DNA of 64,000 bases from Thermoplasmatales archaeon (lineage in GTDB: Archaea > Thermoplasmatota > E2 > DHVEG-1): NCBI GenBank assembly GCA_041305025.1, contig JBFYMG010000025.1, positions 5,590 to 69,589 on the forward strand. The letters are read 5' to 3'. The notes under the pieces were generated by a model. That model saw only the letters and a list, made by a program, of their open reading frames with translations, was not told where the DNA came from and ran no database searches. This document shows positions 33,303 through 58,380 of the stretch, piece by piece. Within the stretch, counting starts at the first letter, position 1. Each line of letters begins with the position of its first letter. A program made the position numbers and the translations under genes.

Positions 33303-34034
33303 CTATAACATGGATCGGATCGCATTTATCAGATAAAATAAAATATCTCCTAGGACAAAAGAAGCAACAAAGCCGGCCAACAGTGGAATCATAAACGGAA
33401 TCTTTGGTGTGACCCATATCTCTTTCATACCAAGCTTTTCAAATTCTTCTAACTCTTTTTGGGTATCAAAATCCTTGGGCATGTACATAAATTTTCTTTT
33501 TCCATCTTTTATTTTTTCTAAAGGCCAGACAAACTTTTCTTTTGCTTTTGCAATAGTCATCTTGTAACCTAACAGACAATATGGAAATTCTGGGTTTTTC
33601 TTAACGATATTGAAAACTAACAGGCTTAGGGGGATGAAAAGGAATAGTATGACTGAATTTGAAAATATTGTCCAAGGAGTAGGCATAATTGTATATTTCC
33701 ACAGAGGAATATTGTTTATTATGGGTGGCAATGGCACAAGTATTGCCAAGGCCATAAGCGCTTTTGCGTCAGCTCCACCAAAAATAAGCCTCATTTGAAA
33801 TAGGAGATATACAAGAACAATCATGATAGGTATGAAAACAAGGTACATTGTTTTGTCTCCAAAGCCCACAGTAAAATATTGTATAGCCAAAAGAATGCCG
33901 CCGGCAACTCCCATTATAACCCACAGCATGTTTGATGCTCGTCTGGTTTTGATATCTGTATAAGAAGCGTAGGATAGTATTGCTATTCCAACAATAAGTC
34001 GCGTTATGTCAAGTAATGTTCCAGTTTCTGACAT
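33303..34034 (-). CDS. Archaeal type IV prepilin/preflagellin peptidase (FlaK/PibD/EppA family, A24-like)
   Basis: Polytopic membrane protein with two catalytic Asp motifs: SYTDIKTRRASN and GGADAK (compare FlaK GGADVK). Confidence 0.65.
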   Translation of the reverse strand: MSETGTLLDITRLIVGIAILSYASYTDIKTRRASNMLWVIMGVAGGILLAIQYFTVGFGDKTMYLVFIPIMIVLVYLLFQMRLIFGGADAKALMALAILVPLPPIINNIPLWKYTIMPTPWTIFSNSVILFLFIPLSLLVFNIVKKNPEFPYCLLGYKMTIAKAKEKFVWPLEKIKDGKRKFMYMPKDFDTQKELEEFEKLGMKEIWVTPKIPFMIPLLAGFVASFVLGDILFYLINAIRSML

Positions 34035-35930: not shown

Positions 35931-35951
35931 GTTGTTGCTTAACAAGTTAAA

Positions 35952-38299: not shown

Positions 38300-38317
38300 G
38301 CAAAATATTGTAAAGCG

Positions 38318-40377: not shown

Positions 40378-40432
40378 TTAAAATTGGAATAAGCTAAACA
40401 ATTATCCTTATGATAACGAATATGGTAATTAA

Positions 40433-41101
40433 ATGAATCTAATCGAATATTGGGATAAGAGAATATCTGAAAATAAACTATCTGGTACAGGAGATATTTC
40501 TCTTCATCCAAAGGTTAATGAACTTATAAAAAATTTAAAAATGAAAACTATTAGTTCCCTTATAGAATTCAAGGGAAAAAAAGTTTTAGATGCTGGATGC
40601 GGGGTAGGCATATATAGCAAATTCGCACAAGAGATGAATGCATCGCAGGTCATTGCAATAGATTTCGCAACTTCCGCAATAAAAATGACAAGATCAATAC
40701 AGATCGAAGGAATAAATGCAGATGTATCATACCTTCCTTTTAAAGACGGTTGTTTTGATGTAGTTATGTGTTTATCTGTGCTGTATCATATAGTTGATGA
40801 TGAACGATGGGAAATAGCAATAAATGAATTAATTAGAGTTTTAAAAACAGATGGGAAAATTCTTTTACAGATAGAGCATGATATCGATACACCAAATCTC
40901 GATCATTATCATAAAAGACCTTTTGAATCATATTTGCAAAAATTTAGAGAGTTAAAACTAAATGTTGTAAAAGTCGAAGATGTATATTCTCCACCCGATA
41001 ACAGTCTATTAAGATTATTACTAAGATTCATGCCAATTTTAAGATTGATTTTGATTAAAAAACGCAAACAAAATTTACTCATTGTTCTTAAACGAAAGTA
41101 A
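40433..41101 (+). CDS. Class I SAM-dependent methyltransferase
   Basis: Motif I VLDAGCGVGIYS; post-I acidic residue; 222 aa. Confidence 0.75.
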   Translation: MNLIEYWDKRISENKLSGTGDISLHPKVNELIKNLKMKTISSLIEFKGKKVLDAGCGVGIYSKFAQEMNASQVIAIDFATSAIKMTRSIQIEGINADVSYLPFKDGCFDVVMCLSVLYHIVDDERWEIAINELIRVLKTDGKILLQIEHDIDTPNLDHYHKRPFESYLQKFRELKLNVVKVEDVYSPPDNSLLRLLLRFMPILRLILIKKRKQNLLIVLKRK

Positions 41102-42535
41102 TGTACTTTTAAAGAAATTAAATTCTTTCATACCAACTGTTTTCGTAAAAAAGAGAATTGAAAAATATAAACCTGTTCCAATCATGATTACTGCCATCAA
41201 ACTCAATATTCTTTCTGGAGAGATCAGATAAATAAAAATAAACATTACAATTGATGCGAAAAGAGATTTTAGGATGGATTTGTAATCAATATTAAAAGTA
41301 AAAAAACGAGATGAATAATATATTGTTAAAATCATTGCTATTGCGTAAGCAATTAAAGTGGTAACAGCTGCACTTATCATACCAAATCTAGGAACAAATA
41401 AAATATTTAAAAAAAGATTAAAAATCGATGCAACAAGCCATATGACGGCAATCAGTTTAGTATTTTTTTTAAGAAAAAGTATCTGCGCATAAAATCTAGT
41501 TATGCCCTGCATAATGACTGCTGCGGCAACAATTGGAGGTATTAAATAAGCATTTTCTGCTATTTCTTTAGTAGTTAATATCTCCAGTAGTGGTCTAGAA
41601 ATTGCAATTAAACCAAAAACACTTGGAATAGTAATTATTAAAAAATATTTTAGACTATGACTTAAAACTCTTTTCACATCATCTATTTTTCCATCTTCGT
41701 AAGATTTAACCGTTATAGGTATTAAAGATACGCCTATCAAACTGACAAATATAAAAATAGTATTACCAATAGTGTATCCTGATGAGTAGTAACCCGTTGA
41801 AGCTACACCAATAAAAAGCGCTATTAAATATCTATCACTATATGAAACAATCCATGTTGTCAAAGAAGAAGGAAGTAGCGGTATGCTGAAAGATAAATAT
41901 TCCTTTGATGAAGAAAAATTTGGCATCGCTATACCGATATCACGGACTACCAGGTAAAACAATATAATAAAAATAAAAAAATTGGCCAAAAAAATTGATA
42001 GAACAGCACCGAAGAGGCCAAATTTTAAATATAACAAGAATACGCATACAAAACCTATTTTTAGGTAAGCCAATAGTATAGAAAAGAAGGAAAATTTATT
42101 GGCCTGCTGTATTGCAAGAAAATAGAACTTAAATAAAGTATTTAAACAGATGAATGGAAGAACCCAAGAAGCAACGATTAGTATCTGGATATGGTTTGGG
42201 TATAAAAGGTTACCAATTATCATAATAATTGATACCATGAAAGTTGAAGATATAGTAATTAAAATTGCTGAAGAATAAATTCCTTCTTGTAGAGTTATCT
42301 TATTTTTTCCATTTGAAAGGAATCTAAGTACGGCCTGTGGTATTTGCAAAAGTGAAAATTCGGGTAGCAGTTCCAGCAAAACTATAATTAGAGACCATAC
42401 ACCATAGTCATATATATCAAGGGATTTTGTTAATAAAGGGAGGAGTATTAGCCCCGATGGAGTGATTAATATTTGCGTTATAAACATTAATCCAAAATTT
42501 TTCCCTACACTCTGATAAAGTTTGTAATTGTTCAT
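41075..42535 (-). CDS. Polysaccharide/oligosaccharide flippase (Wzx/MOP family)
   Basis: 486 aa, about 12-14 predicted TM segments, typical Wzx length and topology, inside a glycosyltransferase cluster. Confidence 0.65.
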   Translation of the reverse strand: MNNYKLYQSVGKNFGLMFITQILITPSGLILLPLLTKSLDIYDYGVWSLIIVLLELLPEFSLLQIPQAVLRFLSNGKNKITLQEGIYSSAILITISSTFMVSIIMIIGNLLYPNHIQILIVASWVLPFICLNTLFKFYFLAIQQANKFSFFSILLAYLKIGFVCVFLLYLKFGLFGAVLSIFLANFFIFIILFYLVVRDIGIAMPNFSSSKEYLSFSIPLLPSSLTTWIVSYSDRYLIALFIGVASTGYYSSGYTIGNTIFIFVSLIGVSLIPITVKSYEDGKIDDVKRVLSHSLKYFLIITIPSVFGLIAISRPLLEILTTKEIAENAYLIPPIVAAAVIMQGITRFYAQILFLKKNTKLIAVIWLVASIFNLFLNILFVPRFGMISAAVTTLIAYAIAMILTIYYSSRFFTFNIDYKSILKSLFASIVMFIFIYLISPERILSLMAVIMIGTGLYFSILFFTKTVGMKEFNFFKSTLLSFKNNE

Positions 42536-42577
42536 TATTTCTGTCCTTTAAAATTTTAATTCATAATTGAATTTTTT

Positions 42578-43765
42578 TCAGTTTAACTGCTTTTTTATTA
42601 TTAAATTTTTACACACTTCTTCAATTTTTTTTGAAACATCTATCCATCGGTTGTAGTTGTTTACATAACGTCTTCCATTTTTTCCCATTTCTAACCTCAA
42701 TTTAGGGGTTTTTAATAGTTTTATAATTGCATTTGATAATTGTAATGAATTATTTGATTCGGTCATTATACCAGCATTTACGTTTTCTATGAATTCCAAA
42801 CCCGGTATTTTTGAAGCAACTATTGGTTTTTCGCATGCCGCATATTCATAAATTTTTAGAGGGGAGAGACCGATTTTTACATTTCTTGTTTCCGTAAATG
42901 GTGCTACACATACGTCCCCCGCATTGATGTAAGTTAGCGTCTTTTCGTGAGGAATTAATCCGGTAAAAATAAAACTGTCAAAAACTTTGTTTTCTATTGT
43001 AAGATTTACAAGATGCTGTTTTATTACACCATCACCAATTATTAAAAATTTTGTATTGGGAATTTCCTTCAAGATGGTTGGAGCTGCTTGAATGAGATAT
43101 TCTATCCCTTGCCATGGCACAAGATTACCTACAAAACAAACGTGATAATCAGTTTCATTCAATTTTAATTCTCTCAAGCATTCCTTCTTATTTTTGGGTT
43201 TAAATAAATCCGGATCAACTCCATTTGGTATTATAGAAATTTTAGATGAATCAATATGGAATTCATTCACTATGTAGTCTTTGATTTCTTTTGTAACTGC
43301 AATTATTGTATTACATAGTCGATAGGATTTTTTTTCAAGTATTAGTAAAAATTTGTACATCAAACTATTTTGTGTTATCAATTTTTTAGAAAGAGCTTCA
43401 TCACTAATAATTCCATGAGATAACATAATGATTGGTATCTTTTTCTTTGAAAAATATTTAAACAACGGTACATAAAAAGTATCAGTTATTATAACATCAA
43501 AATTTTTCGTTTCTTTATTAATTTTTTTTAAAATCTTAATCAATCTAAATAATACTATTGGCGATTTAAAATTCTCTCCATAAATTCTTTCGTTAACAAC
43601 GACATTCTTTTTGATATATGATTTTAATTCCTCATCCAATATAGGATTTGGAGAAATGATGGTAATATTCCAATTTTTTGGAAAGTGTTTAACTCTATTT
43701 TTAATTGAAATAACTCGGACGTTTTTTTTAGTTAAATCGTCAAATGTTATCCAGCATAAATTCAT
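42578..43765 (-). CDS. Glycosyltransferase family 4
   Basis: GT-B fold signatures (EKKSYRLCNTIIAVT, C-terminal E-x7-E region); 395 aa. Confidence 0.72.
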   Translation of the reverse strand: MNLCWITFDDLTKKNVRVISIKNRVKHFPKNWNITIISPNPILDEELKSYIKKNVVVNERIYGENFKSPIVLFRLIKILKKINKETKNFDVIITDTFYVPLFKYFSKKKIPIIMLSHGIISDEALSKKLITQNSLMYKFLLILEKKSYRLCNTIIAVTKEIKDYIVNEFHIDSSKISIIPNGVDPDLFKPKNKKECLRELKLNETDYHVCFVGNLVPWQGIEYLIQAAPTILKEIPNTKFLIIGDGVIKQHLVNLTIENKVFDSFIFTGLIPHEKTLTYINAGDVCVAPFTETRNVKIGLSPLKIYEYAACEKPIVASKIPGLEFIENVNAGIMTESNNSLQLSNAIIKLLKTPKLRLEMGKNGRRYVNNYNRWIDVSKKIEEVCKNLIIKKQLN

Positions 43766-44955
43766 TTTCTATTCTCTCTTAAAATCTTCCGATATATCTT
43801 GAGTGTATTTTTTGCAATGTTTTCCCACGTATAATTCTCTTCCGCGCTTTTTCTATTTTCATTTCCCATCGTTATTCTTTCTTCAGGATGTAGTATGAGA
43901 TAACTTATCTTTTCGGCTAGTTGTTCTACATCTCGTGGTTTAACAAGAAAACCATTTATGCCATCTTTCACTGCATCTGAAATTCCACCAACGTCTGAAG
44001 CGATAATAGGTTTACCAGCTGCCATTGCTTCAGGGATGACCGTAGGAAATCCCTCCGATAAAGAAGTGATTACAAAAATATCTGCTTGTTCCAAATATTT
44101 TGGGATTTCTTCATTTGCAATGGCCCCGACAAATGTAATATTTTTATCTATAGCCAATATACGAGCAAAATTTTCTAGGCTGTTTTTTAGAGGCCCATCG
44201 CCGACTAACATCAGTTGAGATTCTGGATAGATATCTATAATTCTCTTCGTTGCTTTGAGTAAATATTCTAAACCTTTTACTTCAACCATTCTTCCAATCC
44301 AGATGAGAGTCGAACCATAACTCTTCATCTTAGAGGGCGATTTCGGTTTAATCATTGACAAATATACTCCATTGGGTATAACAGTGATAAAATCCTCTTT
44401 TAAACCTAAATTAATCAATCGTTTTTTATTTTCGTTAGAAACAGTTATTATGCTATCTGAATGCGATATAATTTCAATCAACATTTTTTTAAAAAATCCT
44501 TGTTTAGGGATTGTATAGATATCGCTTCCGTGAGCTGTTATAATTAATTTTTTTCCAGTTAATTTTTTAATAAATAATCCAGCGTATCCAGATGGCAAAA
44601 ATTCGGCATGAATAATATCGCATTTTTTGGCAATGCGTAATCCTTTAAAGAAAAAACATACCATAAAGAATATTAGCTGAAATTTGGCTAAAAGAATGCG
44701 AGAAAGGTTGCGAGGTATTCCTCCACCATAAGCAACTTTTTGTCCTTTTTTTGTAAACCAATATTGAAATCTGTAGATTTCAACACCATCGATAAATTCT
44801 TGATCTTTTGTATTCACATCATGAGGAGCAATAACGCTAATACGTACATCGTTTTTTACAAGTTCTTTTGCCAGATTATGAACAAAAATTCCAGCGTAAT
44901 CGCCAGCATATCTTGGATAAGATGTAGTAAGAATGCATATTTTCATATTATTCAT
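43762..44955 (-). CDS. Glycosyltransferase family 4
   Basis: LSEGFPTVIPEAMAAGKPIIASDVGG motif; 397 aa; 4-nt overlaps on both sides. Confidence 0.78.
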   Translation of the reverse strand: MNNMKICILTTSYPRYAGDYAGIFVHNLAKELVKNDVRISVIAPHDVNTKDQEFIDGVEIYRFQYWFTKKGQKVAYGGGIPRNLSRILLAKFQLIFFMVCFFFKGLRIAKKCDIIHAEFLPSGYAGLFIKKLTGKKLIITAHGSDIYTIPKQGFFKKMLIEIISHSDSIITVSNENKKRLINLGLKEDFITVIPNGVYLSMIKPKSPSKMKSYGSTLIWIGRMVEVKGLEYLLKATKRIIDIYPESQLMLVGDGPLKNSLENFARILAIDKNITFVGAIANEEIPKYLEQADIFVITSLSEGFPTVIPEAMAAGKPIIASDVGGISDAVKDGINGFLVKPRDVEQLAEKISYLILHPEERITMGNENRKSAEENYTWENIAKNTLKIYRKILRENRK

Positions 44956-45899
44956 CTGGATAATTCTTTATTTGATTCCATATCAAACATCATGGCAAAA
45001 ATTATTGATTGTAAACCCATAATTAAAAATAACGCAGTTAAAACTACAGTTCCTGTAGAATATCCGCCAGTCAAAATTCTGAAATATAGAACATCGATTC
45101 CGAGTATAAGTCCAAAAGGAAATAATATAAGCCCAACAAGATAAAATAGAAACAATGGATGGAAATTTACTCCACCATATTCCCTCCATATTCTTTTGAA
45201 AAAACCGCTAACTAATAACCCTGTCAATCTAGCAGAATATCTCCCCATCTTTATTTTCGATTTTTCATTGCCATATCTTGGAGACATCTCTACATCTGCG
45301 ATTCGAAATTTACCGACATTTAGCTTTATCAACAAATCATTAGGATAACCATATCCATCATATATATCATCCACATCGATAGTTTCTAATGCTTTTCTTG
45401 AAATAGCAGTATATCCATTTTGTGGATCAATAACATTCCAATATCCTGATGCTATCTTTGTAAGAAATGTTAACATTCCGTTTCCGAATGCTCTAAATTT
45501 TGGCATCTTCATTCTTTCTTTGTGTGTTAGTCTATTTCCTTTTGCATAATCGATTTTCCCTTCGACAATTGGATCAATTAATCTGTGCAGTTCGTTGGGA
45601 TCCATTTGTGCATCACCGGCCATAACTGCAGTAACGTCAATATTCAACTCGAGAGATTTTTTGTATCCCGTTTTGATTGCCGCGCCAACGCCTTTATTTT
45701 TTTCATGCCTAACCAAAATTAATTTATTGGAAAATTTTTCCTGTAATGAATCTACCATCTTTACTGTATTGTCTTTGCTGTTGTCGTCAATAACTATGAG
45801 TTTATCGACAAAATCAGGAATCGTTGTGATTGTTTGCAAGATCAGTTGTTCTTCATTATATGCTGGAACAACAACCGCTATTGTTTTTTCTTTGTACAT
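44952..45899 (-). CDS. Glycosyltransferase family 2 (dolichyl-phosphate sugar synthase-like) with C-terminal TM helices
   Basis: VVVPAYNEE, DDNSKDNT, DAQ motifs (GT-A DxD region) plus two C-terminal TM segments. Confidence 0.8.
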   Translation of the reverse strand: MYKEKTIAVVVPAYNEEQLILQTITTIPDFVDKLIVIDDNSKDNTVKMVDSLQEKFSNKLILVRHEKNKGVGAAIKTGYKKSLELNIDVTAVMAGDAQMDPNELHRLIDPIVEGKIDYAKGNRLTHKERMKMPKFRAFGNGMLTFLTKIASGYWNVIDPQNGYTAISRKALETIDVDDIYDGYGYPNDLLIKLNVGKFRIADVEMSPRYGNEKSKIKMGRYSARLTGLLVSGFFKRIWREYGGVNFHPLFLFYLVGLILFPFGLILGIDVLYFRILTGGYSTGTVVLTALFLIMGLQSIIFAMMFDMESNKELSR

Positions 45900-45994
45900 C
45901 TATAGTCCTCCTCGCCAGCGTTACAATTTACATTATATCATTATTATGGATATTTTTAACTATTAAAGATATACAAAATGAATTACATAAACCT

Positions 45995-48900
45995 TTATTT
46001 CACTTTATAAATATGCCAATCAACCTCAACCTGTTTCTTTATAGGATTGGCAGAGATATGCATATAGATATCGGCTACAGATGGATAATATTGTGTCAGA
46101 TCATGAGTGGAAAGAATGTAATCCGCATTAACATTTCCGGAAAGTATTAGGTTGCTTAGGTTATTTGAATTCTTAAATTCTACATGTGCATCTGGCAACC
46201 AAAAATACATATCCGAATGCATGATTTTCCAATAGCTTAAATCCATCCCGCCTCCAGAAAAGGCACCGAAACCATCTTCAAAAATTATAGATGAATCAGG
46301 GTCATTTTGCATAAACCAACGAGCGGGTTTATTCATTCCATCATTCATAACAAATGCATTCTCACTTATTTGCTCATCGATAATTGGAATGCAAAGCAAT
46401 AATGATAGGAGTAGAGCAACTATTAAAAAAATATTAGCAGATTTGGATGACTTTTTAATAAATGAAAAATTTTTTTTCAAAAACCATTTTAAAGTTATGC
46501 AAATGGTAAATAATATCAAAATGACTCCGAACAAGATACGAAATAAAGTAAAACAATCAACATTAAATATGTAATTCCCACGTAAACCAGTTATCCATAA
46601 GAGATCTATATTGTTAACGATGTGATAATTTTCTATTGGGAAAAAAAGAATGAAAAAAAAGCCAAGTAAAATTAAAATATAACTAATATGGAAATTAACA
46701 TTGCGATTTTTATTTTTTATTCTTTGAAATAAGTTAATGCCGATAACGCCTAACATAAAAATGATTGGCAGGCCCGGAGAAGCATATCTTGTATAAATGC
46801 TATAGTGGGTTGAAAAAATATGAGTGCTTGTAATTATTATAAGAAAGAAAATAGAAGACAGCCCATACAATGTAAAAACAGCTAGAGATTCTTTTTTTTC
46901 ATTTTGGAATTTTTTCCAATTTATGACTAAAAAGACAGAAAACGCTGCGAAAACAATGTAACTCATAACAACAAAATAGTTAATTTCATTTAATACTATA
47001 TGAATAAATCTAGTAAAATTTGATAAATTCGAAAAAACTAAAGAGAGATTGGCAAGATAATAAGAATCAGAATAGCCCATTGTCAATGATTTGCTCTTAT
47101 ACATCATGTATCCAATAACAGGTATGAATGGCAGAAAAATTAACCCGTATTTGATTGCAAAAATTTTCCTATTTTTTATAATTTTGTAGAGAAAAACAAA
47201 AAATAAAGCAGCCAGCATGGCTACACCTATAGATCTAACCATAATAAGAAATCCTACAGAAAAACCGGATAAAAGAGAATAAAATACGAACTTTTTATCA
47301 AAATTATCACACGTAAATGTTTTTAATATCAAAAGGCAGGAAATTAGAAATATGGGATAAAAAGCATTTTCACTCATTGTTACATAGGTGTAAGCAGTTA
47401 TTATTGGTAAAATTGCGATTATTATGGAAGTGACAAAAGATAATTTTTTGCTGACAAAATTTTTCATTATAAAAAAAACGGGAAAAATCACCAGCGAAGA
47501 AAGTACGCAGTTGATAAATAACATAGCACGGTATACTACATCCATGTTGTTTCCCAGAAGATATGTAGGAGCTAAAAAATATGAGTATCCTGCGGGAGGA
47601 TATGCAGTTGAAAAGGGTACATTCCCTATAATCGTAAAGTTACCTTGAAATATGTATTTGGCCAAGACACCATATATAAGCTCGTCACCATATATCCGTG
47701 GAGCGACAAAGAAATAACTTATTAAAAACTTGACGGCAATAAGAACAAAGAAACTTAAAATTATAAGACCGAACCATCCACCCAATTTCATGAAAAAGTG
47801 AAGACATTTGGAACGGTTTAGTATTTGTCTTATCGTTTTGATATTATAAACGATAATTATACTTATTCCTAATAGTATTATGAATATCAAAGCACCGATT
47901 CCTTGAGGCATCTTATTAGATGTAATACCTGCCTGATCTGACGTAACAATTATTTTTCTTAAATCTATGCTACTTGATCCATTATTATCAAAGATTTCAA
48001 GAAATGCATTGTATGAGCCTTCTTTGTTGTAAATATATGTTGTTATTCCAGTGGAATTTGAATTCCAATCGTAGATTCCATCGCCGTTAAAATCCCATCG
48101 AAATATAGTGATCTTTCCATCAGGATCATACCCCGTTCCATTAAAAGATACAATTTTTCCTTCATGAACATTCGCGTCACCGCCAGCATATGCCATTGGT
48201 GACAAATTAATTTCATCGCTAATGTCTTTGTTTGTTTTAATCATAAAAACGTTGTAGCCGTTGGGCCACTGAGTATAACCCACTAGCGTGAATCCACCGC
48301 CATCTGTTCGTATCAAAGAAAGTGCTCGTTCGTCACCATCACCTGAATAATTTTTATTCCATTGCATATAACCATTGGAATCTGTTTTCACAAGAAAAAA
48401 ATCATATGAAAGCAATACTTCAGAGTGCCCTGCGATTGCAAAACCATTGTCCGGGGTTTGAATTAAAGAATATGCACCATCATCCTGCTTTCCACCATAG
48501 GTCCTATTCCACTCCATAGTACCATTTTGATCTGTTTTTACTAACCAGAAGTCACTACTGCCTGAACCATATGAAAGTGTATAACCGGCGAGCGCAAAAC
48601 CGTAATCTTGGGTTTGAATTAAAGAATATGCAAAATCATCTTCTGGCCCACCATATGTTTTACTCCAACATAGGTCGCCGTTAGAATAAATTTTTATTAG
48701 AATAAAATTGTTTTTTTCTTCACCAAATGAATTAGAAATGCCTGCAATGGCGTATCCGCCATCCGGGGTTTTAGTCACTGATGTAGCTTGATCATCTTTA
48801 ATTCCACCATATGTTTTATACCATTCAACACCGCCAGTGGAGTTAGTTTTAATCAAAAGAAAATCATAGTCATTTCCTCCAACAAGTGGTGAGTTTGAAG

Positions 48901-49366
48901 ATCCAACGATCAAATATCCATCATCATCTGTTTGAAGTAAATCATATGCAGAATCATCTCTGCTACCTCCATAAAGTTTATTCCATTCCATAGTACCATT
49001 CTTATCTGTTTTTACCAACCAGAAATCGTATTCGCCTGAACCAAAAGAATCGGTTATTCCTACAAACGCGTATCCTCCATCAATAGTTTGAATCACTTGT
49101 GTCGCAACGTCATAACCTTTCCCACCATATGTTTTATTCCATTTTTCAATCGGATAACTATGCCCAATTGTAGTTGAAAAAAAGGACAGAGTAATAACTA
49201 ACAGAACAATAAAGATAGCCTTTGCATATTTTTTAATTATATCCTCACCGTCTTGCAAACCTAGTATTTTTATATAATATTTATTGTCGAAGATATTCTT
49301 ACATAATAAGGTATAGTAATACCTTTTAAAAACATTGATATAGATGTGAAAAGAAATTTTTTGCAT
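45995..49366 (-). CDS. Large membrane glycosyltransferase (GT-C/ArnT-PMT-like) fused to an N-terminal repeat domain and PKD domain
   Basis: N-terminal about 6 x 48-aa YGG..DD.AYSLIQT.DGG repeats (beta-propeller-like), PKD domain (FNGTGYDPDGKITIFRWDFNGDG), then about 13 TM helices with YPPAGYSYFL-type GT-C motif and a soluble C-terminal domain. Confidence 0.5.
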   Translation of the reverse strand: MQKISFHIYINVFKRYYYTLLCKNIFDNKYYIKILGLQDGEDIIKKYAKAIFIVLLVITLSFFSTTIGHSYPIEKWNKTYGGKGYDVATQVIQTIDGGYAFVGITDSFGSGEYDFWLVKTDKNGTMEWNKLYGGSRDDSAYDLLQTDDDGYLIVGSSNSPLVGGNDYDFLLIKTNSTGGVEWYKTYGGIKDDQATSVTKTPDGGYAIAGISNSFGEEKNNFILIKIYSNGDLCWSKTYGGPEDDFAYSLIQTQDYGFALAGYTLSYGSGSSDFWLVKTDQNGTMEWNRTYGGKQDDGAYSLIQTPDNGFAIAGHSEVLLSYDFFLVKTDSNGYMQWNKNYSGDGDERALSLIRTDGGGFTLVGYTQWPNGYNVFMIKTNKDISDEINLSPMAYAGGDANVHEGKIVSFNGTGYDPDGKITIFRWDFNGDGIYDWNSNSTGITTYIYNKEGSYNAFLEIFDNNGSSSIDLRKIIVTSDQAGITSNKMPQGIGALIFIILLGISIIIVYNIKTIRQILNRSKCLHFFMKLGGWFGLIILSFFVLIAVKFLISYFFVAPRIYGDELIYGVLAKYIFQGNFTIIGNVPFSTAYPPAGYSYFLAPTYLLGNNMDVVYRAMLFINCVLSSLVIFPVFFIMKNFVSKKLSFVTSIIIAILPIITAYTYVTMSENAFYPIFLISCLLILKTFTCDNFDKKFVFYSLLSGFSVGFLIMVRSIGVAMLAALFFVFLYKIIKNRKIFAIKYGLIFLPFIPVIGYMMYKSKSLTMGYSDSYYLANLSLVFSNLSNFTRFIHIVLNEINYFVVMSYIVFAAFSVFLVINWKKFQNEKKESLAVFTLYGLSSIFFLIIITSTHIFSTHYSIYTRYASPGLPIIFMLGVIGINLFQRIKNKNRNVNFHISYILILLGFFFILFFPIENYHIVNNIDLLWITGLRGNYIFNVDCFTLFRILFGVILILFTICITLKWFLKKNFSFIKKSSKSANIFLIVALLLSLLLCIPIIDEQISENAFVMNDGMNKPARWFMQNDPDSSIIFEDGFGAFSGGGMDLSYWKIMHSDMYFWLPDAHVEFKNSNNLSNLILSGNVNADYILSTHDLTQYYPSVADIYMHISANPIKKQVEVDWHIYKVK
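48256..49156 (-). repeat. Tandem array of about 144-nt degenerate repeats encoding the YGGxxDDxAY...DGGY modules
   Basis: At least six consecutive protein-level repeats; coordinates approximate. Confidence 0.5.
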
Positions 49367-49434
49367 ATTTAAATCAAAGAAATAAAAAGATATAAGGCAT
49401 CAATACGCAATATCCTCAATTTGGTGTATAATAA

Positions 49435-50562
49435 ATGATAAAAATTAGAGTTGTTGTTTTAACTGTCACCATTCTACTTTGTTTTTTTATTTTTTCCTTC
49501 ACGGTTGAGAATATCAGAGCAACAGATGAAAACACTATTTTTATTGATGATAACTATGATAACTCTACATATGGTTTCGGAGTAAATCATTTCAATCAAA
49601 TTCAATCTGCCATAAATGCTGCATCTGTTGGTAATACACTATACGTTTATTCTGGAGTATACTATGAAAATTTGTTAATAAATAAATCAATCTCAATTGT
49701 CGGAGAGGATAAAACAATTGTTGACGGTGGTGGTAACGGAGATGTAATTACAATAAAAGCTGATAAAGTATTCATAAACAATTTCTCCATTCAGAATAGC
49801 GGACATAGCGGACAAGATTCGGGTTTAAAAATTTTATCCGGTCAAAACATTATACAAAAAAATAACTTCGACGATAATCAAATAGGCATCTTAATACGAA
49901 ATAGCAAATCAAATTTTGTTTCGGGGAATAATATTACAAACAATACATATGGCATAGGGGTTGAATTTTGTAAAAATAAAAACGACATATACAAAAATTA
50001 TGTTTTCAATAACAAAATTACAGGGATATATCTATCTTATAGTGACAACAATTTAGTAAATCAAAATTATATAGAGAACAATAGCTATGGGATAGCATTG
50101 TCTTTTTGTAACAATACCCGCATTTTAGAAAATAACAACAAAAAAAATAACAACTACGGATTAAGTTTATATTCGTGCAGTAATAATCGTCTCGTTGGAA
50201 ATAGAATCACTGAGAGTAATCATGGAATTGTATTTGAAGAAAGCAATTTTAACAATACAATAGACAATAACAATATCAAAAATTATTCGTTTGGAATTAG
50301 AATAGGGAATAAAAACAAAAATACCACAATAACAAATAACATAATATCAAACGGAGATAATGGAATATACATCTCAGCAAAATCAAAAGAAAACCACATT
50401 TTTAATAATATATTCTCGAACAATGAGATTAAAATTCAAGAAGAGACAACATCTATCGAGAAAGAGATAGATTTTTTATACGTCTTGGTGCCGAGTTTTA
50501 TAATAATGTTAATAATAATGCTGTACGGTCTCTATAAGATACTGCAAAAAAAGATGTCGTAA
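49435..50562 (+). CDS. Right-handed parallel beta-helix repeat surface protein with C-terminal TM anchor (no PGF)
   Basis: Signal peptide; about 12 Asn-rich beta-helix turns (NNxI.GI....S); C-terminal hydrophobic helix LVPSFIIMLIIMLYGLY. Confidence 0.6.
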   Translation: MIKIRVVVLTVTILLCFFIFSFTVENIRATDENTIFIDDNYDNSTYGFGVNHFNQIQSAINAASVGNTLYVYSGVYYENLLINKSISIVGEDKTIVDGGGNGDVITIKADKVFINNFSIQNSGHSGQDSGLKILSGQNIIQKNNFDDNQIGILIRNSKSNFVSGNNITNNTYGIGVEFCKNKNDIYKNYVFNNKITGIYLSYSDNNLVNQNYIENNSYGIALSFCNNTRILENNNKKNNNYGLSLYSCSNNRLVGNRITESNHGIVFEESNFNNTIDNNNIKNYSFGIRIGNKNKNTTITNNIISNGDNGIYISAKSKENHIFNNIFSNNEIKIQEETTSIEKEIDFLYVLVPSFIIMLIIMLYGLYKILQKKMS

Positions 50563-50625
50563 ATATTCTAATCTAGACAAAAAAAATATAAAGAAAAAAG
50601 GGGAATTATTTTATTTAAAATTCTA

Positions 50626-51015
50626 TTATGTAAATTCCCATGTGCCCAATAATGTGTTTGTTGGTACGTATCTCAAGGTGACTGTATCTGGAGAACTTGT
50701 AAATTCGATGTAATCACCTGCCGTAACAGTACCCGTTGGAAAAGCAGAAATTGTTTCTCCTTCAACGAGTTCGATATCACTCCAATCTAAACTTGTCGGA
50801 TCAGCTGAAGATACAAGTAGCCTGTTGGAAATATCATTTTTTGAAAACTGTACGTTTGGTGTTACAGTAGGACTTGTTCCAATCATTCCACTAACGTATA
50901 CATACACTGTTGCTGCTATCGCTACTGTTATTGCAACCATTAAAATAACACCAATAACAGCCGAAACTGCTTCCTCACCTTTTATAAATTTCCTATTTGC
51001 TTTCATCTTTCCCAT
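50626..51015 (-). CDS. Archaeal type IV pilin (class III signal peptide, Pilin_N/DUF361-like)
   Basis: MGKMKANRKFIKGEEAVSAVIGVILMVAITVAIAATVYVYV: basic leader, KG cleavage context and conserved hydrophobic helix; 129 aa. Confidence 0.72.
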   Translation of the reverse strand: MGKMKANRKFIKGEEAVSAVIGVILMVAITVAIAATVYVYVSGMIGTSPTVTPNVQFSKNDISNRLLVSSADPTSLDWSDIELVEGETISAFPTGTVTAGDYIEFTSSPDTVTLRYVPTNTLLGTWEFT

Positions 51016-51290
51016 TCTCTCCTAGCTATATTTCAAGCTATTTCATTTTGACAGTAGATGGTTCACATGGTATATATACTTTTTGACTTTTGCTTTAATC
51101 TACATCTGGGAGTGACAAGAATTTTAAGATAATAAACTTACAAATAATTAAAACTTATAATTTAGAACATAGCAACGAAATGTTTATTATAAGTAAGTAA
51201 GTTTACAGTATTGTAAAAATAATAAAATAATGGGATGCCGCAAGAATAATTGTTGTAGTGCATCTACTAAATCTTTGGAGATTTGGAAGA

Positions 51291-52553
51291 ATGCCTAATG
51301 TAAAAAAGCATAAAGATAAGAAGCCAGTTAAACCAGAATCAGACATCATTCTAAAAAAAGAGATGAAGAATCTTGGTGAAAAAAAGATAAAATCCAATCC
51401 TAAAGCACTTTCTAACAAGAAAAAACAAGACAAAACAAAGAAAAACTCCGTTGATCTTCATTGGGAAATTGTAAAAAAAATTGACTCTCTAATCGCAGAA
51501 CATGAGAAAGAAACGGCATCTGAAGAAGAAGTTTTAGAAGGAATAGTAGAAGTAAGGAAACCTCTTAAGAAAAAGTTAGAGGCATCAGATTTTAAGTCTG
51601 ACATTCGAGCGGAAAATATTTCCAACTACTTAGATTTTGAAAACGAGCAATTTAAAGTAGAGCTTTCGGGTAGGGACAATCCTAGTTTTAAATTTGTTAA
51701 AGCCCTCGAAGAACCAAAAGATATAGTATACATAAGAGATTTGAATCAACTTGAAAAAAATGATGATTTTCATAGCAAAATGTTGGGTGGTTCGGATAAA
51801 ACAAATCAAAAAACTGCCATGGGTCTTGCCCGCATAAAAATTAGAAGTAGAGAAGAAAGAGCAAAGCTTAAAGACGCTGGAAATAAACCTAAGCATGCTT
51901 CTTCACCACAAAATATAAAAAACGTACGAGAAAAGGAAACAAAAAAAGTTAATGGATTTACTGCAGTTAAAAAAGAACTGGAAGAAACAAAAAGGGAAAT
52001 CGAAGAAAAGAAAAAGGAGCTGGAGCTGGCTGAAAAAAGAGCAAAGGAAGAAGCAGAGGAATTAAAGGAAAAAAAGAAAGAAAGATTTGAAAAAGATAAA
52101 GAAGGAAAAAAATTAAAAAGGCTCGAACTTAAACAAGCAAAGACAGAAGCAAAGGAAAGAGAAAAAAAATTAAGAGAAAAGGCCAAGATTGAAGCAAAGA
52201 ATAAAAAATTGGAAGCGAAAACTGCGTTGAAAGAAGAAAAACTCAAAAGAAAACTTGAGGCAAAAAAGAAGGTCGGCAAACCAGAAAAAGAAACAGCAAG
52301 TGTTTTGAAAGCAAAAAAACCAGACGACGAAAAAAGGAAAGAGAAAAGCTCTACAAAAGGTTTGCATCATTTTATTCTTGGTAAGAAAGAAGTAGCCGAG
52401 GAAAATCCAATTTTAGATGAGGACATAATACAGGTTCTCAGGATAGCCGACAATCTGCTAGAAAAGTTACCAAGTGAAGTTATTGATGAATTCGTTCAGT
52501 CTGAAGATTTTACATTGTATGAGAAGGTTATTAGTAAATATAAGATAAAGTGA
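51291..52553 (+). CDS. Lys/Glu-rich coiled-coil protein, candidate pilus-associated component
   Basis: ORF track starts at 51258; ATG at 51291 with GGAGAT 6 nt upstream is more plausible. Extreme KE coiled-coil centre and conserved-looking C-terminal block ENPILDEDIIQVLRIADNLLEKLPSEVIDEF. Confidence 0.4.
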   Translation: MPNVKKHKDKKPVKPESDIILKKEMKNLGEKKIKSNPKALSNKKKQDKTKKNSVDLHWEIVKKIDSLIAEHEKETASEEEVLEGIVEVRKPLKKKLEASDFKSDIRAENISNYLDFENEQFKVELSGRDNPSFKFVKALEEPKDIVYIRDLNQLEKNDDFHSKMLGGSDKTNQKTAMGLARIKIRSREERAKLKDAGNKPKHASSPQNIKNVREKETKKVNGFTAVKKELEETKREIEEKKKELELAEKRAKEEAEELKEKKKERFEKDKEGKKLKRLELKQAKTEAKEREKKLREKAKIEAKNKKLEAKTALKEEKLKRKLEAKKKVGKPEKETASVLKAKKPDDEKRKEKSSTKGLHHFILGKKEVAEENPILDEDIIQVLRIADNLLEKLPSEVIDEFVQSEDFTLYEKVISKYKIK

Positions 52554-52557
52554 GAAT

Positions 52558-54198
52558 ATGGGACTACTGGAAAAAGCACAGCAAAGAAAACAAGACGTAT
52601 TTGAAAAACCAAGGGATTCGGAAATAAGCATATTGAAAGAATTACCAAAAGAGATAAAATCAAAGAAAGGCGCCATCCAAAAGATAAAAATTGAAAAGGA
52701 ATTAAAGAAAGATTTACTTGACGAACGAAAGGGATTTGGATGGAAGGGGCTAGGCAGTAGAAAAATTGCCTTTGACGAAAGCATTAATGAATACAAATAC
52801 AATGTTTCAGAGCCCAGCTTAGATGAAGATGAAATACAAACAAAGAACGAGCTCGTTCGTTTGTTTAAAATGCTTGCCAACATCAACGTTTTCGATGTAG
52901 AGAAAGAAGAGAAAAAAAAATATCTTGAAGAAACATTGAACCAGATAGTAATAGATAACGACTTTAAATTTAAAGCTGGATCAAAGGATAAAATTTTTTA
53001 TCATATTTTTAGGGATTTTATAGGTTATGGCAGGATAGATATTTTGATGGGAGATGAAGGCATCGAAGACATTTCTTGTGATGGGCATCATGTACCAATA
53101 TTTATTTATCACAAGAAATACGATGCGATTTCAACAAATATTCATTTTCAAGATGGAGATGAACTAGATTCTTTTGTCGTACGTCTTTCGCAGATAAGTG
53201 GTAAACAGATATCCATCTATTCACCAATAGTCGATGGTAAACTGCCGGATGGCTCAAGACTTCAGACCACCCTTGCAAAAACTGTTACCAAAGGTTCAAC
53301 TTTTACCATTAGAAGATTCAGAGAAAACCCTCTAACCCCTGTCGATCTCATTAACTTTGGTTCAATGTCTGTTGATATGGCAGCATATTTCTGGATGGCT
53401 ATTGAAAACGGCGCCTCAATTCTCTTCTGTGGAGGAACGGCCAGCGGAAAAACATCTGCATTAAACGCACTGTCACTGTTTATACCAGCCCAGCACAAAA
53501 TTGTATCCATTGAAGATACTCGAGAGGTAAGCCTGCCTCATAAAAACTGGATAGCGGGCACAACAAGGCAAGGTTTTTCATCTTCTGATGACAGCAAAAC
53601 AGGTAAAGACATAGACATGTTTGATCTGATTAGAGCCGCGTTAAGGCAAAGACCTAGAGTCGTTATAGTCGGAGAGGTCAGAGGAAAAGAAGCATACAGC
53701 TTGTTCCAAGCCATGGCAACAGGCCACACATCTTACGCAACGGTTCATGCAAGCACCATACACACACTAATACAGCGATTGGAAAATCCTCCAATATCGC
53801 TACCAAGAGCACTGCTCACATCACTTGACATTATAGTATTTCAAAATGCAATTGATTTATGCGGAAAAACGGCAAGAAGAATGACCAGTGTGACCGAAGT
53901 AGTAAAGTTGGATCCTGATACTAATCAACTTATTTTTATGGAGCCGTTTAGCTGGGTTTCAAAAACAGATGACAGATTTGAAAGCACCGGTACAAGTAAG
54001 ATATTAAACAATATAAAACTACAGAATGACTGGACGGATGAGCATCTCACAAGGGAACTAGATAACAGAAAAATAATGCTTGAATGGATGAGAAAAAAAG
54101 AGATTAAAAACTACAAAGATGTGGGAAAAATCATAGCAGATTATCACAAATATTCTGATGTTTTGTTAAAGAAAGCAAAAGAGGAGATGAAGAAGTGA
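52558..54198 (+). CDS. FlaI/PilB/GspE-family secretion ATPase (archaeal type IV pilus or archaellum assembly ATPase)
   Basis: Walker A GGTASGKTSALNAL, Walker B IVGEVRGKEA, His-box ATGHTSYATVHAS; 546 aa. Confidence 0.9.
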   Translation: MGLLEKAQQRKQDVFEKPRDSEISILKELPKEIKSKKGAIQKIKIEKELKKDLLDERKGFGWKGLGSRKIAFDESINEYKYNVSEPSLDEDEIQTKNELVRLFKMLANINVFDVEKEEKKKYLEETLNQIVIDNDFKFKAGSKDKIFYHIFRDFIGYGRIDILMGDEGIEDISCDGHHVPIFIYHKKYDAISTNIHFQDGDELDSFVVRLSQISGKQISIYSPIVDGKLPDGSRLQTTLAKTVTKGSTFTIRRFRENPLTPVDLINFGSMSVDMAAYFWMAIENGASILFCGGTASGKTSALNALSLFIPAQHKIVSIEDTREVSLPHKNWIAGTTRQGFSSSDDSKTGKDIDMFDLIRAALRQRPRVVIVGEVRGKEAYSLFQAMATGHTSYATVHASTIHTLIQRLENPPISLPRALLTSLDIIVFQNAIDLCGKTARRMTSVTEVVKLDPDTNQLIFMEPFSWVSKTDDRFESTGTSKILNNIKLQNDWTDEHLTRELDNRKIMLEWMRKKEIKNYKDVGKIIADYHKYSDVLLKKAKEEMKK

Positions 54199-55061
54199 GG
54201 TCCACAAAATACACGAGATTTTGTCGACGTCTCTTCGCAAGAATATTTGAGCGATTCAACGTAAGCGAAACCAGCACAAATAGACTACTTGAAAAAGCAG
54301 ATATCAGTATGGTCTACCAAGAATATTACTCGATGGTTTTAATGAATATTATTGTTGGCTACATTGCATCTTTTGTTCCTACGTTGTTGCTATATCTACT
54401 GGTTCCCAACAATATTACGGCGCTGTTTATTCTTGCAATATCTTCGATAGTGCCAATATTTGCTGGATTGTACTATCTGAACTTACCAAGATCTAAAGCA
54501 AAAGCTCGTGGCAAAAAAATAGACCAATATCTACCATACGCTACAAATTTTATCAACACAATGTCGGTTGCAGGCATTTCACCTGCAGAGATATTTGAAA
54601 CATTGTCTACAGTGGAACTGTACGGTGAAATACAAAAAGAGGCGAAGAAAATCGCGATAGAAATCAACATGATGGGAATTGATACGGTTACTGCTCTGAA
54701 AAATTCAATAGCCATATCTCCATCTGCAAAGTTCAAAGAATTTGTTCAAGGCATGCTAGGCGTTATACAAGCTGGAAGTCAACTTGGACCTTACTTTGAC
54801 AGATGCGTTGACAAATATATGATGAATGATTTGATAGACAGAAAAAGAAACTTAGAGTCGCTTGCGGTTATGGCAGAAACTTTTGTGACAACTGTCATTG
54901 CGTTTCCTCTCTTTCTAGTTATTATCATCTCAGTAATGGGAATGACCAGTAGCCAAGGAATATCATTTAGTTTCCTGTTTATCTTGGCTTTTTTAATACT
55001 TCCCATGGCATACTTTGGGTTTTATGTCATGATGAGCTCCGGGATGGGAAAATCGGTATGA
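54195..55061 (+). CDS. FlaJ/TadC-like membrane platform protein, N-terminal T2SSF half
   Basis: T2SSF-domain motifs (LPYATNFINTMSVAGISPAEIFETL) and TM helices; 288 aa; 4-nt overlap with next ORF. Confidence 0.7.
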   Translation: MRSTKYTRFCRRLFARIFERFNVSETSTNRLLEKADISMVYQEYYSMVLMNIIVGYIASFVPTLLLYLLVPNNITALFILAISSIVPIFAGLYYLNLPRSKAKARGKKIDQYLPYATNFINTMSVAGISPAEIFETLSTVELYGEIQKEAKKIAIEINMMGIDTVTALKNSIAISPSAKFKEFVQGMLGVIQAGSQLGPYFDRCVDKYMMNDLIDRKRNLESLAVMAETFVTTVIAFPLFLVIIISVMGMTSSQGISFSFLFILAFLILPMAYFGFYVMMSSGMGKSV

Positions 55062-55957
55062 AGATTGCATTTAGAAAGAAGTACAATGCAAAAAAAATCT
55101 ATGAAAAGGACAAAACCATCCTATTTATTATAGCGATTTCAATGAGTTTTTCCATATTGCTGTTTTTACTAGGTTTTTTTACACTCATAGGAGTTATCGG
55201 ATTTTTCAATGATATAATATCTGGAGTTGATTTCCTTGTTTTTGGTTTATTGTCTATTATTGGACCTGTTGGATTTTATAACCACATGAAAGCTAAAAAG
55301 AAAAGAGATATAGAAGAGCAACTGCCTGATTTTCTTCGCGAAATAAGCAGCTCAACATCTTCAGGCATGACCATTTTTGATGCAATAAAATCTGCCGCAA
55401 GGGGCGACCACGGAAGATTGACCCCTGAGTTGCAAATGATGGCTGCCCAGCTCTCATGGGGCATACCAGTCAAAGATGCTTTGGACAATTTTGCAAAGAG
55501 AGTCGGCACAGACGCTATAAAACGAATGACCATAACAATAAATAAGGCACTGGAAATCGGTGGAAATACCGCGGCTGTTTTTAACGCTGCTGCAAGGGAA
55601 ATTGATCAGGCTAAACGTGTAGAACAACAAAGGAGAGCAGAGATGTCTATGTACGCAATAGTGATTTTCATTAGTTTTTTTGTGTTTTTAGCAGTGATTT
55701 TGATAATTGATAAAACAATATTTGCTGCAATTTTTGATATCCAGGGCAAGATGGCTGGAAAATCCATCGGAAATATGCAGATAGCAAATGTGGATCAAGG
55801 TATGTTAAAAAATACATTCTTTTCTTTTGTTCTCGTTCAAAGTCTAGGTGGAGGTTTGCTTGGTGGTTTCATGATGGATGGCAGGCTTTCATCGGGTGTT
55901 AGATTTGGCTTCATACTTGTTTTAGTCTCATTTTTTGTCTTTAAATTTATGTTCTAA
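55058..55957 (+). CDS. FlaJ/TadC-like membrane platform protein, C-terminal T2SSF half
   Basis: Second T2SSF domain (LPDFLREISSSTSSGMTIFDAIKSAA...LSWGIPVKDAL) and TM helices; 299 aa. Confidence 0.7.
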   Translation: MKIAFRKKYNAKKIYEKDKTILFIIAISMSFSILLFLLGFFTLIGVIGFFNDIISGVDFLVFGLLSIIGPVGFYNHMKAKKKRDIEEQLPDFLREISSSTSSGMTIFDAIKSAARGDHGRLTPELQMMAAQLSWGIPVKDALDNFAKRVGTDAIKRMTITINKALEIGGNTAAVFNAAAREIDQAKRVEQQRRAEMSMYAIVIFISFFVFLAVILIIDKTIFAAIFDIQGKMAGKSIGNMQIANVDQGMLKNTFFSFVLVQSLGGGLLGGFMMDGRLSSGVRFGFILVLVSFFVFKFMF

Positions 55958-56027
55958 GAATTTAGTCATTATGTAAAAATGGCACAAAGAATATAAATAG
56001 GAGAATAAAGAGAATCTTATCTGTGGA

Positions 56028-58376: not shown

Positions 58377-58380
58377 TTCC

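Follow-up and report, generated by a model that had tools for sequence, protein, structure and literature searches.

What can be the function of a membrane-bound glycosyltransferase which carries a large extracellular domain of its own, and on which molecule does it act? This question is raised by a gene found in a stretch of 64,000 nucleotides from a Thermoplasmatales archaeon (contig JBFYMG010000025.1), which as a whole we will call the window. An uninterrupted open reading frame (ORF) occupies positions 45995..49366 of its minus strand. It has 1123 amino acids when counted from its ATG, with the stop codon at 45995-45997; residues are numbered throughout in this frame. The ORF had been described in an earlier note, made from the sequence alone and without giving the strand, and it is real. 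The protein has a well defined order of domains: a signal peptide, a six-bladed beta-propeller similar to that of CylK, a PKD domain, a linker transmembrane (TM) helix, a body of 13 TM helices with the fold of GT-C glycosyltransferases, and a C-terminal domain which faces outward. That we are dealing with a GT-C fold with its ectodomain outside the cell can be said with high confidence. As for its function, the reading that we prefer, tentatively and at slightly less than an even chance, is that of an active, outward-facing GT-C of the PMT_2 group (GT39/GT83-like), which would act as the last enzyme in a three-component system of surface glycosylation.

The fold of the body is clearly apparent in the AlphaFold2 (AF2) model of residues 502-1123, which has a pLDDT (predicted local distance difference test) of 84.4 and a pTM (predicted template modelling score) of 0.88. 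When it is compared with the PDB using Foldseek, the top 30 matches are exclusively GT-C enzymes, with probability 1.00: ArnT, AglB, STT3, PglB, ALG12, Pmt4, Pmt1/2, EmbC, AftA, AftB, ALG6 and ALG3. The best of them is ArnT (5ezm, E=5e-6, TM-scores 0.46/0.52). Unrelated transporters only rank beneath the GT-C enzymes, with probabilities of 0.14 or less, and the full-length model likewise gives a GT-C for the body. At the sequence level the family PMT_2 (PF13231) is matched by 17 of the 19 orthologs (E<=0.01, best 1e-9), while the relatives which lack the ectodomain match PMT_2 or PMT. The protein is a GT-C at the level of its fold and a marginal member of PMT_2 at the level of its sequence. 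The ArnT/PMT-like body of about 13 TM helices which had been proposed for this ORF is confirmed, and so is the soluble domain placed behind it, which the AF2 model shows as a conserved alpha/beta domain (Table 1). Two other classes were considered and rejected. An oligosaccharyltransferase of the STT3/AglB type (GT66) is only a distant fold neighbour: the protein has no STT3 Pfam domain and no WWD motif. A PMT of the eukaryotic type (GT39 in the strict sense) should be recognised by its MIR domain: the protein has no MIR match at E<=1, and the AF2 model does not contain such an inserted domain.

The orientation in the membrane follows from the distribution of charges. The short inward loops have 18 Lys or Arg in 72 residues (25%) and the outward loops only 7 in 129 (5%); from this clear positive-inside pattern, the propeller and PKD domains are located outside, as are the first long loop and the C-terminal domain. 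The linker helix, TM0, is followed by a loop of 22 residues with five Lys or Arg and no Asp or Glu. The region after the last TM helix has 119 residues and is acidic (14 Asp or Glu versus 8 Lys or Arg); it should also be outside, since the number of TM helices is odd. Two of its residues, W1056 and Y1120, are invariant in the whole family. The putative catalytic residues are the pair Asp561-Glu562, directly after TM1 in a loop which is predicted to face outward. In alignments of 19 fusions and of 23 sequences D561 is invariant and E562 is conserved in at least 90% of cases, and D561 remains invariant across 48 family members which include standalone relatives. There are other invariant polar residues (Y594, E666/N667, R860/Y861 and D921/W924), every one of them in a predicted outward loop. 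This is the pattern to be expected for a GT-C active site facing the outside, and we read it as a probable one. A membrane body without GT-C motifs, which the earlier note had named as the finding that would speak against its interpretation, is not what we observe: the fold is present, and its first outward loop has an invariant Asp-Glu.

In front of this body we find the ectodomain. Its propeller is made of exactly six repeats of 50-54 amino acids (residues 75-385), with the motif W-x-K-x-YGG ... DGG[YF] ... [FW]L[VI]K[TI]. The earlier note had counted at least six repeats of about 48 amino acids; the number and the motif stand, the length does not. In the full-length AF2 model (mean pLDDT 78.6, pTM 0.69) the repeats form 24 strands, arranged as six four-stranded blades. 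A profile of the orthologs matches the beta-propeller of CylK in the PDB at E=1.7e-22, and CylK is also ranked first by Foldseek with the full-length model (E=1.9e-14), so that the assignment goes far beyond chance; no Pfam model matches the propeller repeats of the window protein. With its tandem repeats of about 50 amino acids, four-stranded blades and closed propeller, the modelled domain may be assigned to the CylK/SBBP-like class. The number of blades is variable: there are six repeats in the window protein and in the orthologs P0001 and P0014, seven in most other orthologs. The profile of the orthologs also matches the PKD domains of ColH, and a PKD domain does follow the repeats, as had been stated. 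The ectodomain has ten N-x-S/T sequons, six of them in the propeller. The location of both domains outside the cell is again in agreement with the earlier proposal; cytoplasmic repeats, which would have spoken against it, are not what is found, as a signal peptide precedes the repeats and they are predicted to be extracytoplasmic.

Within the window the propeller repeat is confined to the fusion gene. In a wider perspective it occurs in over 2,500 other archaeal and bacterial proteins, secreted or at the surface, with many different partner domains. It is a generic surface module, and the protein might therefore be mainly an adhesin or envelope component, which displays the propeller and PKD domains on a catalytically dead GT-C scaffold that anchors them in the membrane. 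We find this extremely improbable, as the hallmark residues of GT-C enzymes are invariant across fusions and standalone relatives, the TM body is conserved to the same degree as the ectodomain, and the gene is paired in a conserved way with a GT2 gene similar to dolichol phosphate (Dol-P) sugar synthases. We thus keep to an active enzyme.

The limits of the ORF deserve a comment. A TTG at codon 37 is the sole alternative in-frame start ahead of the hydrophobic segment, and it is probably the true start, which gives a protein of 1087 amino acids. It is preferred for several reasons: the N-termini of 18 aligned orthologs coincide with about residues 38-45 of the window protein; residues 1-39 have a pLDDT below 50 in the AF2 model; and the spacer to the divergent neighbour gene is 176 bp from the TTG, as compared with 68 bp from the ATG, while the corresponding spacers in the orthologous loci have 161-245 bp. 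Just after the n-region there is a hydropathy peak at residues 50-68. In the orthologs the matching hydrophobic segments terminate in AxA-like cleavage sites, which is the reason for assigning a Sec-type signal peptide.

How unusual is this protein? Accessory domains are well known in GT-C enzymes: MIR in PMTs, TPR in TMTCs and carbohydrate-binding modules in the Emb enzymes. The fusion had been called uncommon in the earlier note. This does not hold for extracytoplasmic domains in general, of which the TPR of TfpW is another case, but it does hold for the present form, with an N-terminal propeller and PKD and an additional TM helix. When 1.84 billion representatives were searched exhaustively with HMMER, using the TM body as query, 1,256 relatives came up at E<=0.001. 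Of the 150 best, only 13 have a GT-C domain which starts at residues 276-728, a sign of an extension at the N-terminus; the remainder have it from residues 1-38 or 58 onward, and many of these are short fragments. Three standalone relatives (P0128, P0130 and P0131) are complete, with about 550 amino acids and 38-41% identity. They lack TM0: a short cytoplasmic tail is directly followed by TM1 and by the same x-D-E motif. From these relatives it follows that the fusion arose when an existing GT-C acquired at its N-terminal end a signal peptide, a propeller, a PKD domain and one TM helix. The lineage of P0033 carries an additional LamG domain. The propeller and PKD domains joined through an extra TM helix are a new variant of domain architecture in a known enzyme class, as yet uncharacterised.

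The search for orthologous fusions suggested in the earlier note was productive: the fusion is carried by about 24 full-length clusters (clustering at 90% identity), with 35-53% identity, all of them from metagenomes or metagenome-assembled genomes (MAGs). The only one with a name is MCK4364588.1, described at NCBI as 'glycosyltransferase family 39 protein [Thermoplasmatales archaeon]'. Word-indexed searches with the TM body or with its profile gave almost only fusions, and the exhaustive search was needed to find the standalone family: such searches largely miss it because the TM sequence is of low complexity. Exact look-ups of the window protein, from either start codon, gave no match. A scan of a genome collection had a single match (L007 10001-10333, 333 bp of low GC content), with 87% protein identity to residues 502-604 of the fusion. 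It lies within a scaffold of about 50% GC in a MAG of Dehalococcoidia and was rejected as a probable chimera of assembly or binning. The literature searches brought up no paper which describes a fusion of propeller, PKD and GT-C, or which reports that archaeal pilus loci contain a GT-C gene.

We may now ask which sugar donor the enzyme uses. The fusion gene opens an array of genes on the same strand, followed by a GT2, two GT4 and a flippase; both GT4 genes have 4-bp overlaps. The best PDB match of the GT2 is the Dol-P-mannose synthase of P. furiosus (5mlz, E=5e-13) and the next one is ArnC; its best NCBIfam matches are AglJ and PpgS, both below the cut-off. Enzymes of the type of Dol-P-mannose synthase, ArnC, AglJ and PpgS load a single sugar onto polyprenyl phosphate. 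The donor is thus fairly likely to be a Dol-P monosaccharide made by the GT2. This gene, similar to Dol-P-mannose synthase and AglJ and directly downstream of the fusion, and the type IV pilus locus which surrounds both are more conserved partners than the beta-helix and PGF-CTERM proteins which the earlier note had singled out and which are indeed present; neither of the two had been mentioned in it.

The GT2 and GT-C pair has also a different explanation, in which the GT-C-like body would mainly be, or assist, a flippase for the Dol-P hexose made by the GT2. In H. hispanica the pair Agl22/Agl23 acts on hexose-P-dolichol and Agl23 shows flippase activity (PMC11182771); the pairing of GT2 and GT-C is conserved in our family too, where weak matches to the Agl23 model TIGR03663 are seen in two of 48 members (best E=1e-4). 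For the window protein, this model gives no hit. Furthermore, the invariant outward Asp-Glu, the Arg and the other polar residues are typical of the active site of a transferase, and a large ectodomain on the acceptor side has no obvious role in flipping. We therefore consider this explanation very improbable and return to a transferase.

The mechanism that we propose for it has the scheme of other GT-C systems, in which the donor is made, flipped and its sugar transferred: PMT/Dpm1, ArnT/ArnC, GtrC/GtrB and AglS/AglD. From its homology and its conserved adjacency, the GT2 would attach one sugar to dolichol phosphate on the cytoplasmic side of the membrane. The lipid-linked sugar would then be flipped to the outer face, where the GT-C body would pass it to an acceptor outside the cell, presumably by means of Asp561-Glu562, Arg860 and the other invariant residues in outward loops. 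The architecture suggests that the propeller and PKD domains, above the membrane, select or position the acceptor, as the TPR does in TfpW or MIR in the PMTs. The foremost candidates as acceptors are the subunits of type IV filaments encoded by adjoining genes, pilins in this lineage and archaellins in another one, modified on Ser or Thr.

The nature of the acceptor can be approached by comparing orthologous loci, ten of them obtained from exact look-ups and further ones (such as L013 and L014) from a scan of metagenomes. A syntenic group is formed by the window, L001, L003, L006, L008, L009/L013, L012, L014, L015 and L026, with the order pilus machinery, pilin, beta-helix protein (in part of them), fusion, GT2, variable island and prepilin peptidase. 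The identity with the window proteins changes strongly along this order: 63-83% for the pilus ATPase, 55-73% for the prepilin peptidase, 56-76% for the adjacent GT2 (8 loci), 42-50% for the fusion, 37-44% for the beta-helix protein and 23-33% for the flippase. The GT2 is better conserved than the GT-C and far better than the flippase, which on the basis of its low identity between loci appears to belong to the variable island. The gene content of the rest of the island is different in every orthologous locus, even in the closest relative. A GT2 is found directly downstream of the fusion in 11 of the approximately 16 loci in which that side is visible. In L001 both the island and the GT2 are absent, and the fusion is kept between the beta-helix gene and the peptidase. 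From the contrast in identities and from L001 it follows that the fusion and the GT2 are a stable pair which borders a hypervariable glycan island. Since the pair is constant while the island varies, a conserved protein acceptor is favoured over the glycan of the island; we take a protein as acceptor to be possible, at rather less than an even chance.

Which protein could it be? The beta-helix gene adjoins the fusion in the window, L001, L003, L008, L009, L013, L014 and L015. The small pilin adjoins it in seven of the ten loci, as well as in L013 and L014; in the window it is within about 1.3 kb. The prepilin peptidase is found in the same position in L001, L003, L006, L008, L009, L013 and L026. 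As it marks the far edge of the island in the window, the fusion and the glycan island lie inside a type IV pilus locus. Other filament genes are found in unrelated places. L018 (8438-16500) is not syntenic: a fusion with 41% identity is surrounded there by unrelated housekeeping genes; 2.6 kb downstream of it follow three archaellin genes in tandem, with a PGF-CTERM protein in between. In L005 (17877-23502) a T2SSE and two T2SSF genes are 5 kb away from P0033, the fusion bearing LamG; beside them there is a phosphate-binding protein whose class III signal peptide is like that of pilins, as in a bindosome-like system. In summary, glycan genes are the most general neighbours, while genes for type IV filaments are encountered in three independent contexts out of about five: the pilus locus, the archaellins and the bindosome-like system.

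The small pilin of the window and its six orthologs (L001, L003, L006, L008, L009 and L012) have no N-x-S/T sequon at all, as compared with 5.9 expected from composition shuffles. The probability of having none is 0.23-0.56 for each pilin, and the product is about 0.001 under an independence which does not hold. These seven pilins have 17-25% of Ser and Thr (22% is given for that of the window), with a segment rich in Ser, Thr and Pro right after the conserved helix. We take the H-domain of the window pilin to resemble that of the Haloferax PilA pilins. Two of the three archaellins of L018 have either none or a single N-glycosylation sequon; the beta-helix proteins have ten sequons each. The pattern of sequons and of Ser and Thr points to pilins or archaellins as acceptors, although it is only suggestive. 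That a pilin or archaellin is specifically the acceptor remains doubtful in our opinion. It is an unlikely, but attractive, extension of this reading that the family represents the missing O-glycosyltransferase of archaeal type IV filaments, with an ectodomain which would catch the pilins or archaellins on their way out of the membrane and a GT-C which would add the sugar, from the Dol-P sugar of the neighbouring GT2, to Ser or Thr of these subunits devoid of N-glycosylation sequons.

Several observations weigh against the reading that we prefer. Some concern the enzyme itself: the score of the window protein for PMT_2 is only 28.4 bits, with a gathering cut-off of 26.1; sequence profiles from the fusion alignment and from a GT-C-only alignment of 48 members did not find any solved GT-C in the PDB; and the TM-scores with solved GT-Cs are merely about 0.5. 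For these reasons neither the subfamily nor the class of acceptor can be read from homology. Others concern the loci. The GT2 is missing from L001. The absence of sequons in the pilins is only mildly significant, as their sequences are not independent. Most of the loci in which the pilin is adjacent are syntenic and thus not independent either: seven of them share DnaJ/HSP20 flanks and weigh about as much as a single independent observation. In L004 and L010 the fusion has no filament genes in its neighbourhood; its neighbours are genes for sugar nucleotides, sulfation and glycosyltransferases. In L010 (1-13411) there are three fusion paralogs with 1127, 1151 and 1136 amino acids, two of them adjacent and the third beyond a block for the synthesis of 3'-phosphoadenosine-5'-phosphosulfate (PAPS) with ATP sulfurylase, adenosine 5'-phosphosulfate (APS) kinase and sulfotransferase genes; a standalone PMT_2 and several GT4s are close by. 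This suggests that the family has diversified there for a sulfated glycan. Both these tandem paralogs with a PMT_2 in a sulfation and glycan cluster, and the standalone relative of L011, which is set among GT4 and GT2 genes in a GT4-rich cluster, fit better with a glycan as acceptor.

These observations lead to the main rival explanation, an extender of the type of AglS, GtrC or ALG, which would add a terminal or branch sugar from Dol-P onto an attached N-glycan or a flipped lipid-linked glycan, with the propeller binding the glycan or its carrier protein. It is supported better by the glycan-cluster contexts, since the fusion lies within glycan clusters in eight of ten loci, and by the tandem paralogs, which are accompanied by an extra PMT_2 in L014 as well as in L010. 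In addition, ALG12, ALG3 and ALG6 are among the structural neighbours of the body, and the glycan-binding propellers of the hybrid two-component sensors of Bacteroides are among the fold matches. The window contains a trio similar to that of H. volcanii, namely AglD (GT2), AglR (a Polysacc_synt flippase) and a transferase of the AglS type (PMC3871713). A pilin-specific extra hexose found on the N-glycan of M. maripaludis is still unexplained (PMC11407970). Yet the GT-C and GT2 pair is conserved beside a hypervariable island which specifies the glycan, and the GT-C is kept in L001 in the absence of the island, whereas an enzyme specific for the glycan ought to vary together with it; moreover the small pilin next to it has no N-glycosylation sequons. 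An extender is a possibility to be taken seriously, but not a likely one.

The constancy of the pair beside a variable island speaks as well against a role in polymers, that is, the elongation of a lipoglycan or exopolysaccharide anchored in the membrane, or its decoration, in which the ectodomain would hold the growing chain, in the manner of PimE, Mpt, Emb and Aft in mycobacteria. Here the fold matches include EmbC, AftA and AftB, one ortholog is labelled as Thermoplasmatales, and a Wzx-type flippase and GT4 genes are close by. In the island we could recognise neither a polymerase gene nor one for chain length, and we judge this role improbable. A transferase with a protein acceptor remains our preferred reading. 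The features on which this discussion is based are collected in Table 1.

Table 1. Features of the fusion protein and of its neighbourhood in the window (feature, positions, strand, evidence or remarks)
Probable TTG start and Sec-type signal peptide (residues 37-69)	49160..49258	minus	n-region KKYAK, h-region AIFIVLLVITLSFF
Six-bladed beta-propeller (residues 73-385)	48212..49150	minus	repeat alignment, AF2 strands, CylK matches
PKD domain (residues 388-466)	47969..48205	minus	PF18911 (PKD_4) E=3e-11; PF00801 E=1e-7
Linker helix TM0 (residues 489-507)	47846..47902	minus	hydropathy 2.78; returns the chain to the cytoplasm ahead of the GT-C body
13-TM GT-C body (residues 530-1004)	46355..47779	minus	AF2 model, Foldseek, PMT_2 match
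Asp561-Glu562, putative catalytic acidic pair, start of first outward loop	47681..47686	minus	conservation
Conserved alpha/beta C-terminal domain (residues 1010-1123), predicted outside	45998..46339	minus	AF2: five strands, three helices
Partner GT2, predicted dolichol-phosphate sugar synthase	44952..45899	minus	95 bp downstream; C-terminal TM helices
Wzx/AglR-type flippase (Polysacc_synt)	41075..42535	minus	end of same-strand array
Prepilin peptidase (FlaK/PibD-like)	33303..34034	minus	NCBIfam FlaK E=3e-22; far edge of island
Membrane-anchored beta-helix (NosD/CASH-like) protein	49435..50562	plus	divergent from fusion; alternative candidate acceptor or partner
Small type IV pilin	50626..51015	minus	class III signal peptide ...EEA/VSAVIGVILMVAITVAIAA; Pilin_N E=1e-11
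Type IV pilus machinery: T2SSE ATPase and two T2SSF platform genes	52558..55957	plus	conserved synteny

The fusion gene is found in a stretch of low GC content (34000-52000, with about 28-33% as compared with 34-40% in the flanks). Past the flippase there are genes for a methyltransferase, a sulfotransferase, another GT4, a WbuX-like amidotransferase, a PGF-CTERM beta-helix protein and an AbiEii toxin. The amidotransferase (37172-38299) is of the WbuX type which acts on N-acetyl sugars, with 285.7 bits, above the cut-off; its presence hints at an acetamidino sugar in the glycan of the island. The equivalent position in L008 has partner genes similar to HisH/HisF. The gene for the AbiEii-family toxin (35010-35930) overlaps by 4 bp an upstream ORF of 213 amino acids without any family match (the region is 34372-35930), which is possibly its antitoxin. 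This pair is found at the edge of the glycan island; in the same place L009 has a different pair, of the nucleotidyltransferase/HEPN type. Two NosD-like beta-helix proteins (35952-37046 and 61416-63239) have tails of the PGF-CTERM type (...TPGFEI, a TM helix and basic residues). The one which is divergent from the fusion does not have such a tail, only a plain C-terminal TM anchor.

On the other side, large pilin-like proteins with LamG domains are also found in the pilus region. The locus (51258-60348) has a split platform, with two T2SSF genes, a 431-residue protein rich in Lys and Glu without family match, a pilin-like protein of 782 amino acids with LamG domains and a protein of 665 amino acids. 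The split T2SSF platform is reminiscent of the machinery of the CdiP pilus in Cuniculiplasma (PMC12448462).

The interest of this family is related to two questions. O-glycosylation in Archaea is an open question (PMC8241124), and it is unexplained how some archaea place a different glycan on their pilins than on their archaellins (PMC11407970). A GT-C of the PMT_2 type, with its own ectodomain on the acceptor side, a Dol-P sugar synthase as partner and a presence in filament loci, is a concrete candidate for a step of surface-protein glycosylation in Archaea. The combination of a signal peptide with an extra TM helix is also of interest, as it allows an N-terminal extracellular module on an enzyme which needs a cytoplasmic N-terminus, apparently a rare solution among GT-Cs. 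Should the enzyme do no more than attach a branch sugar to a glycan, it will be just one ordinary case of the three-component glycosylation systems, which are widespread. As the family has only about 24 clusters, each of them from uncultured Thermoplasmatales-like archaea, its immediate impact is limited. If it were a filament O-glycosyltransferase, it would be the archaeal counterpart of TfpW and PMT and would provide a first handle on an archaeal O-glycosylation pathway.

We will finally compare the fusion with systems which are already known. The closest solved relative of its repeat domain is the propeller of CylK (7fh6, 7ron), both by profile and by fold. No function can be deduced from it, since CylK is a soluble cyanobacterial enzyme which carries out Friedel-Crafts alkylation. 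ArnT (GT83, from Cupriavidus metallidurans, 5ezm/5f15) shares with the body 13 TM helices, a cytoplasmic N-terminus, an outward C-terminal domain and an acidic residue in the first outward loop. The GT2 which makes the donor of ArnT is ArnC, also a PDB match of the neighbouring GT2. However, the identity is about 9%, there is no match at the sequence level, and ArnT modifies lipid A, which is absent from archaea, and has neither an N-terminal ectodomain nor the extra TM helix.

The PMTs (GT39; Pmt1/2 6p25, Pmt4 9i5k) and PMT_2 are the only Pfam families matched by the TM body. They have in common with it the Asp-Glu motif in loop 1; they use a Dol-P monosaccharide made by a GT2 of the DPM1 type, and an additional lumenal or extracellular domain aids in handling the acceptor. 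This domain is a MIR inserted in loop 5, whereas the fusion has a propeller and PKD at the N-terminus; furthermore the score is marginal and the structural similarity is confined to about 250-480 aligned columns. In H. volcanii AglD, a GT2, makes Dol-P-mannose, AglR, of the Polysacc_synt type, is needed for flipping and AglS transfers the sugar outside the cell (PMC3871713). The same three types of genes are found on one strand in the window, a likeness by gene type. AglS acts on an N-linked tetrasaccharide, and no propeller-PKD ectodomain has been reported for it.

The closest functional analogy is found in TfpW. In the group IV pili of P. aeruginosa this GT-C, encoded beside the major pilin gene pilA, O-glycosylates the pilin (bioRxiv 10.1101/2020.04.19.049825). 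It differs from the fusion in being bacterial, with 646 amino acids, 11 predicted TM helices, a C-terminal periplasmic TPR and decaprenyl-P-arabinofuranose as donor. The analogy lies in an extracytoplasmic repeat domain, a required acidic motif in loop 1 and a polyprenyl-phosphate donor, and the window shows a further trait of this kind: the fusion gene is close to a pilin gene.

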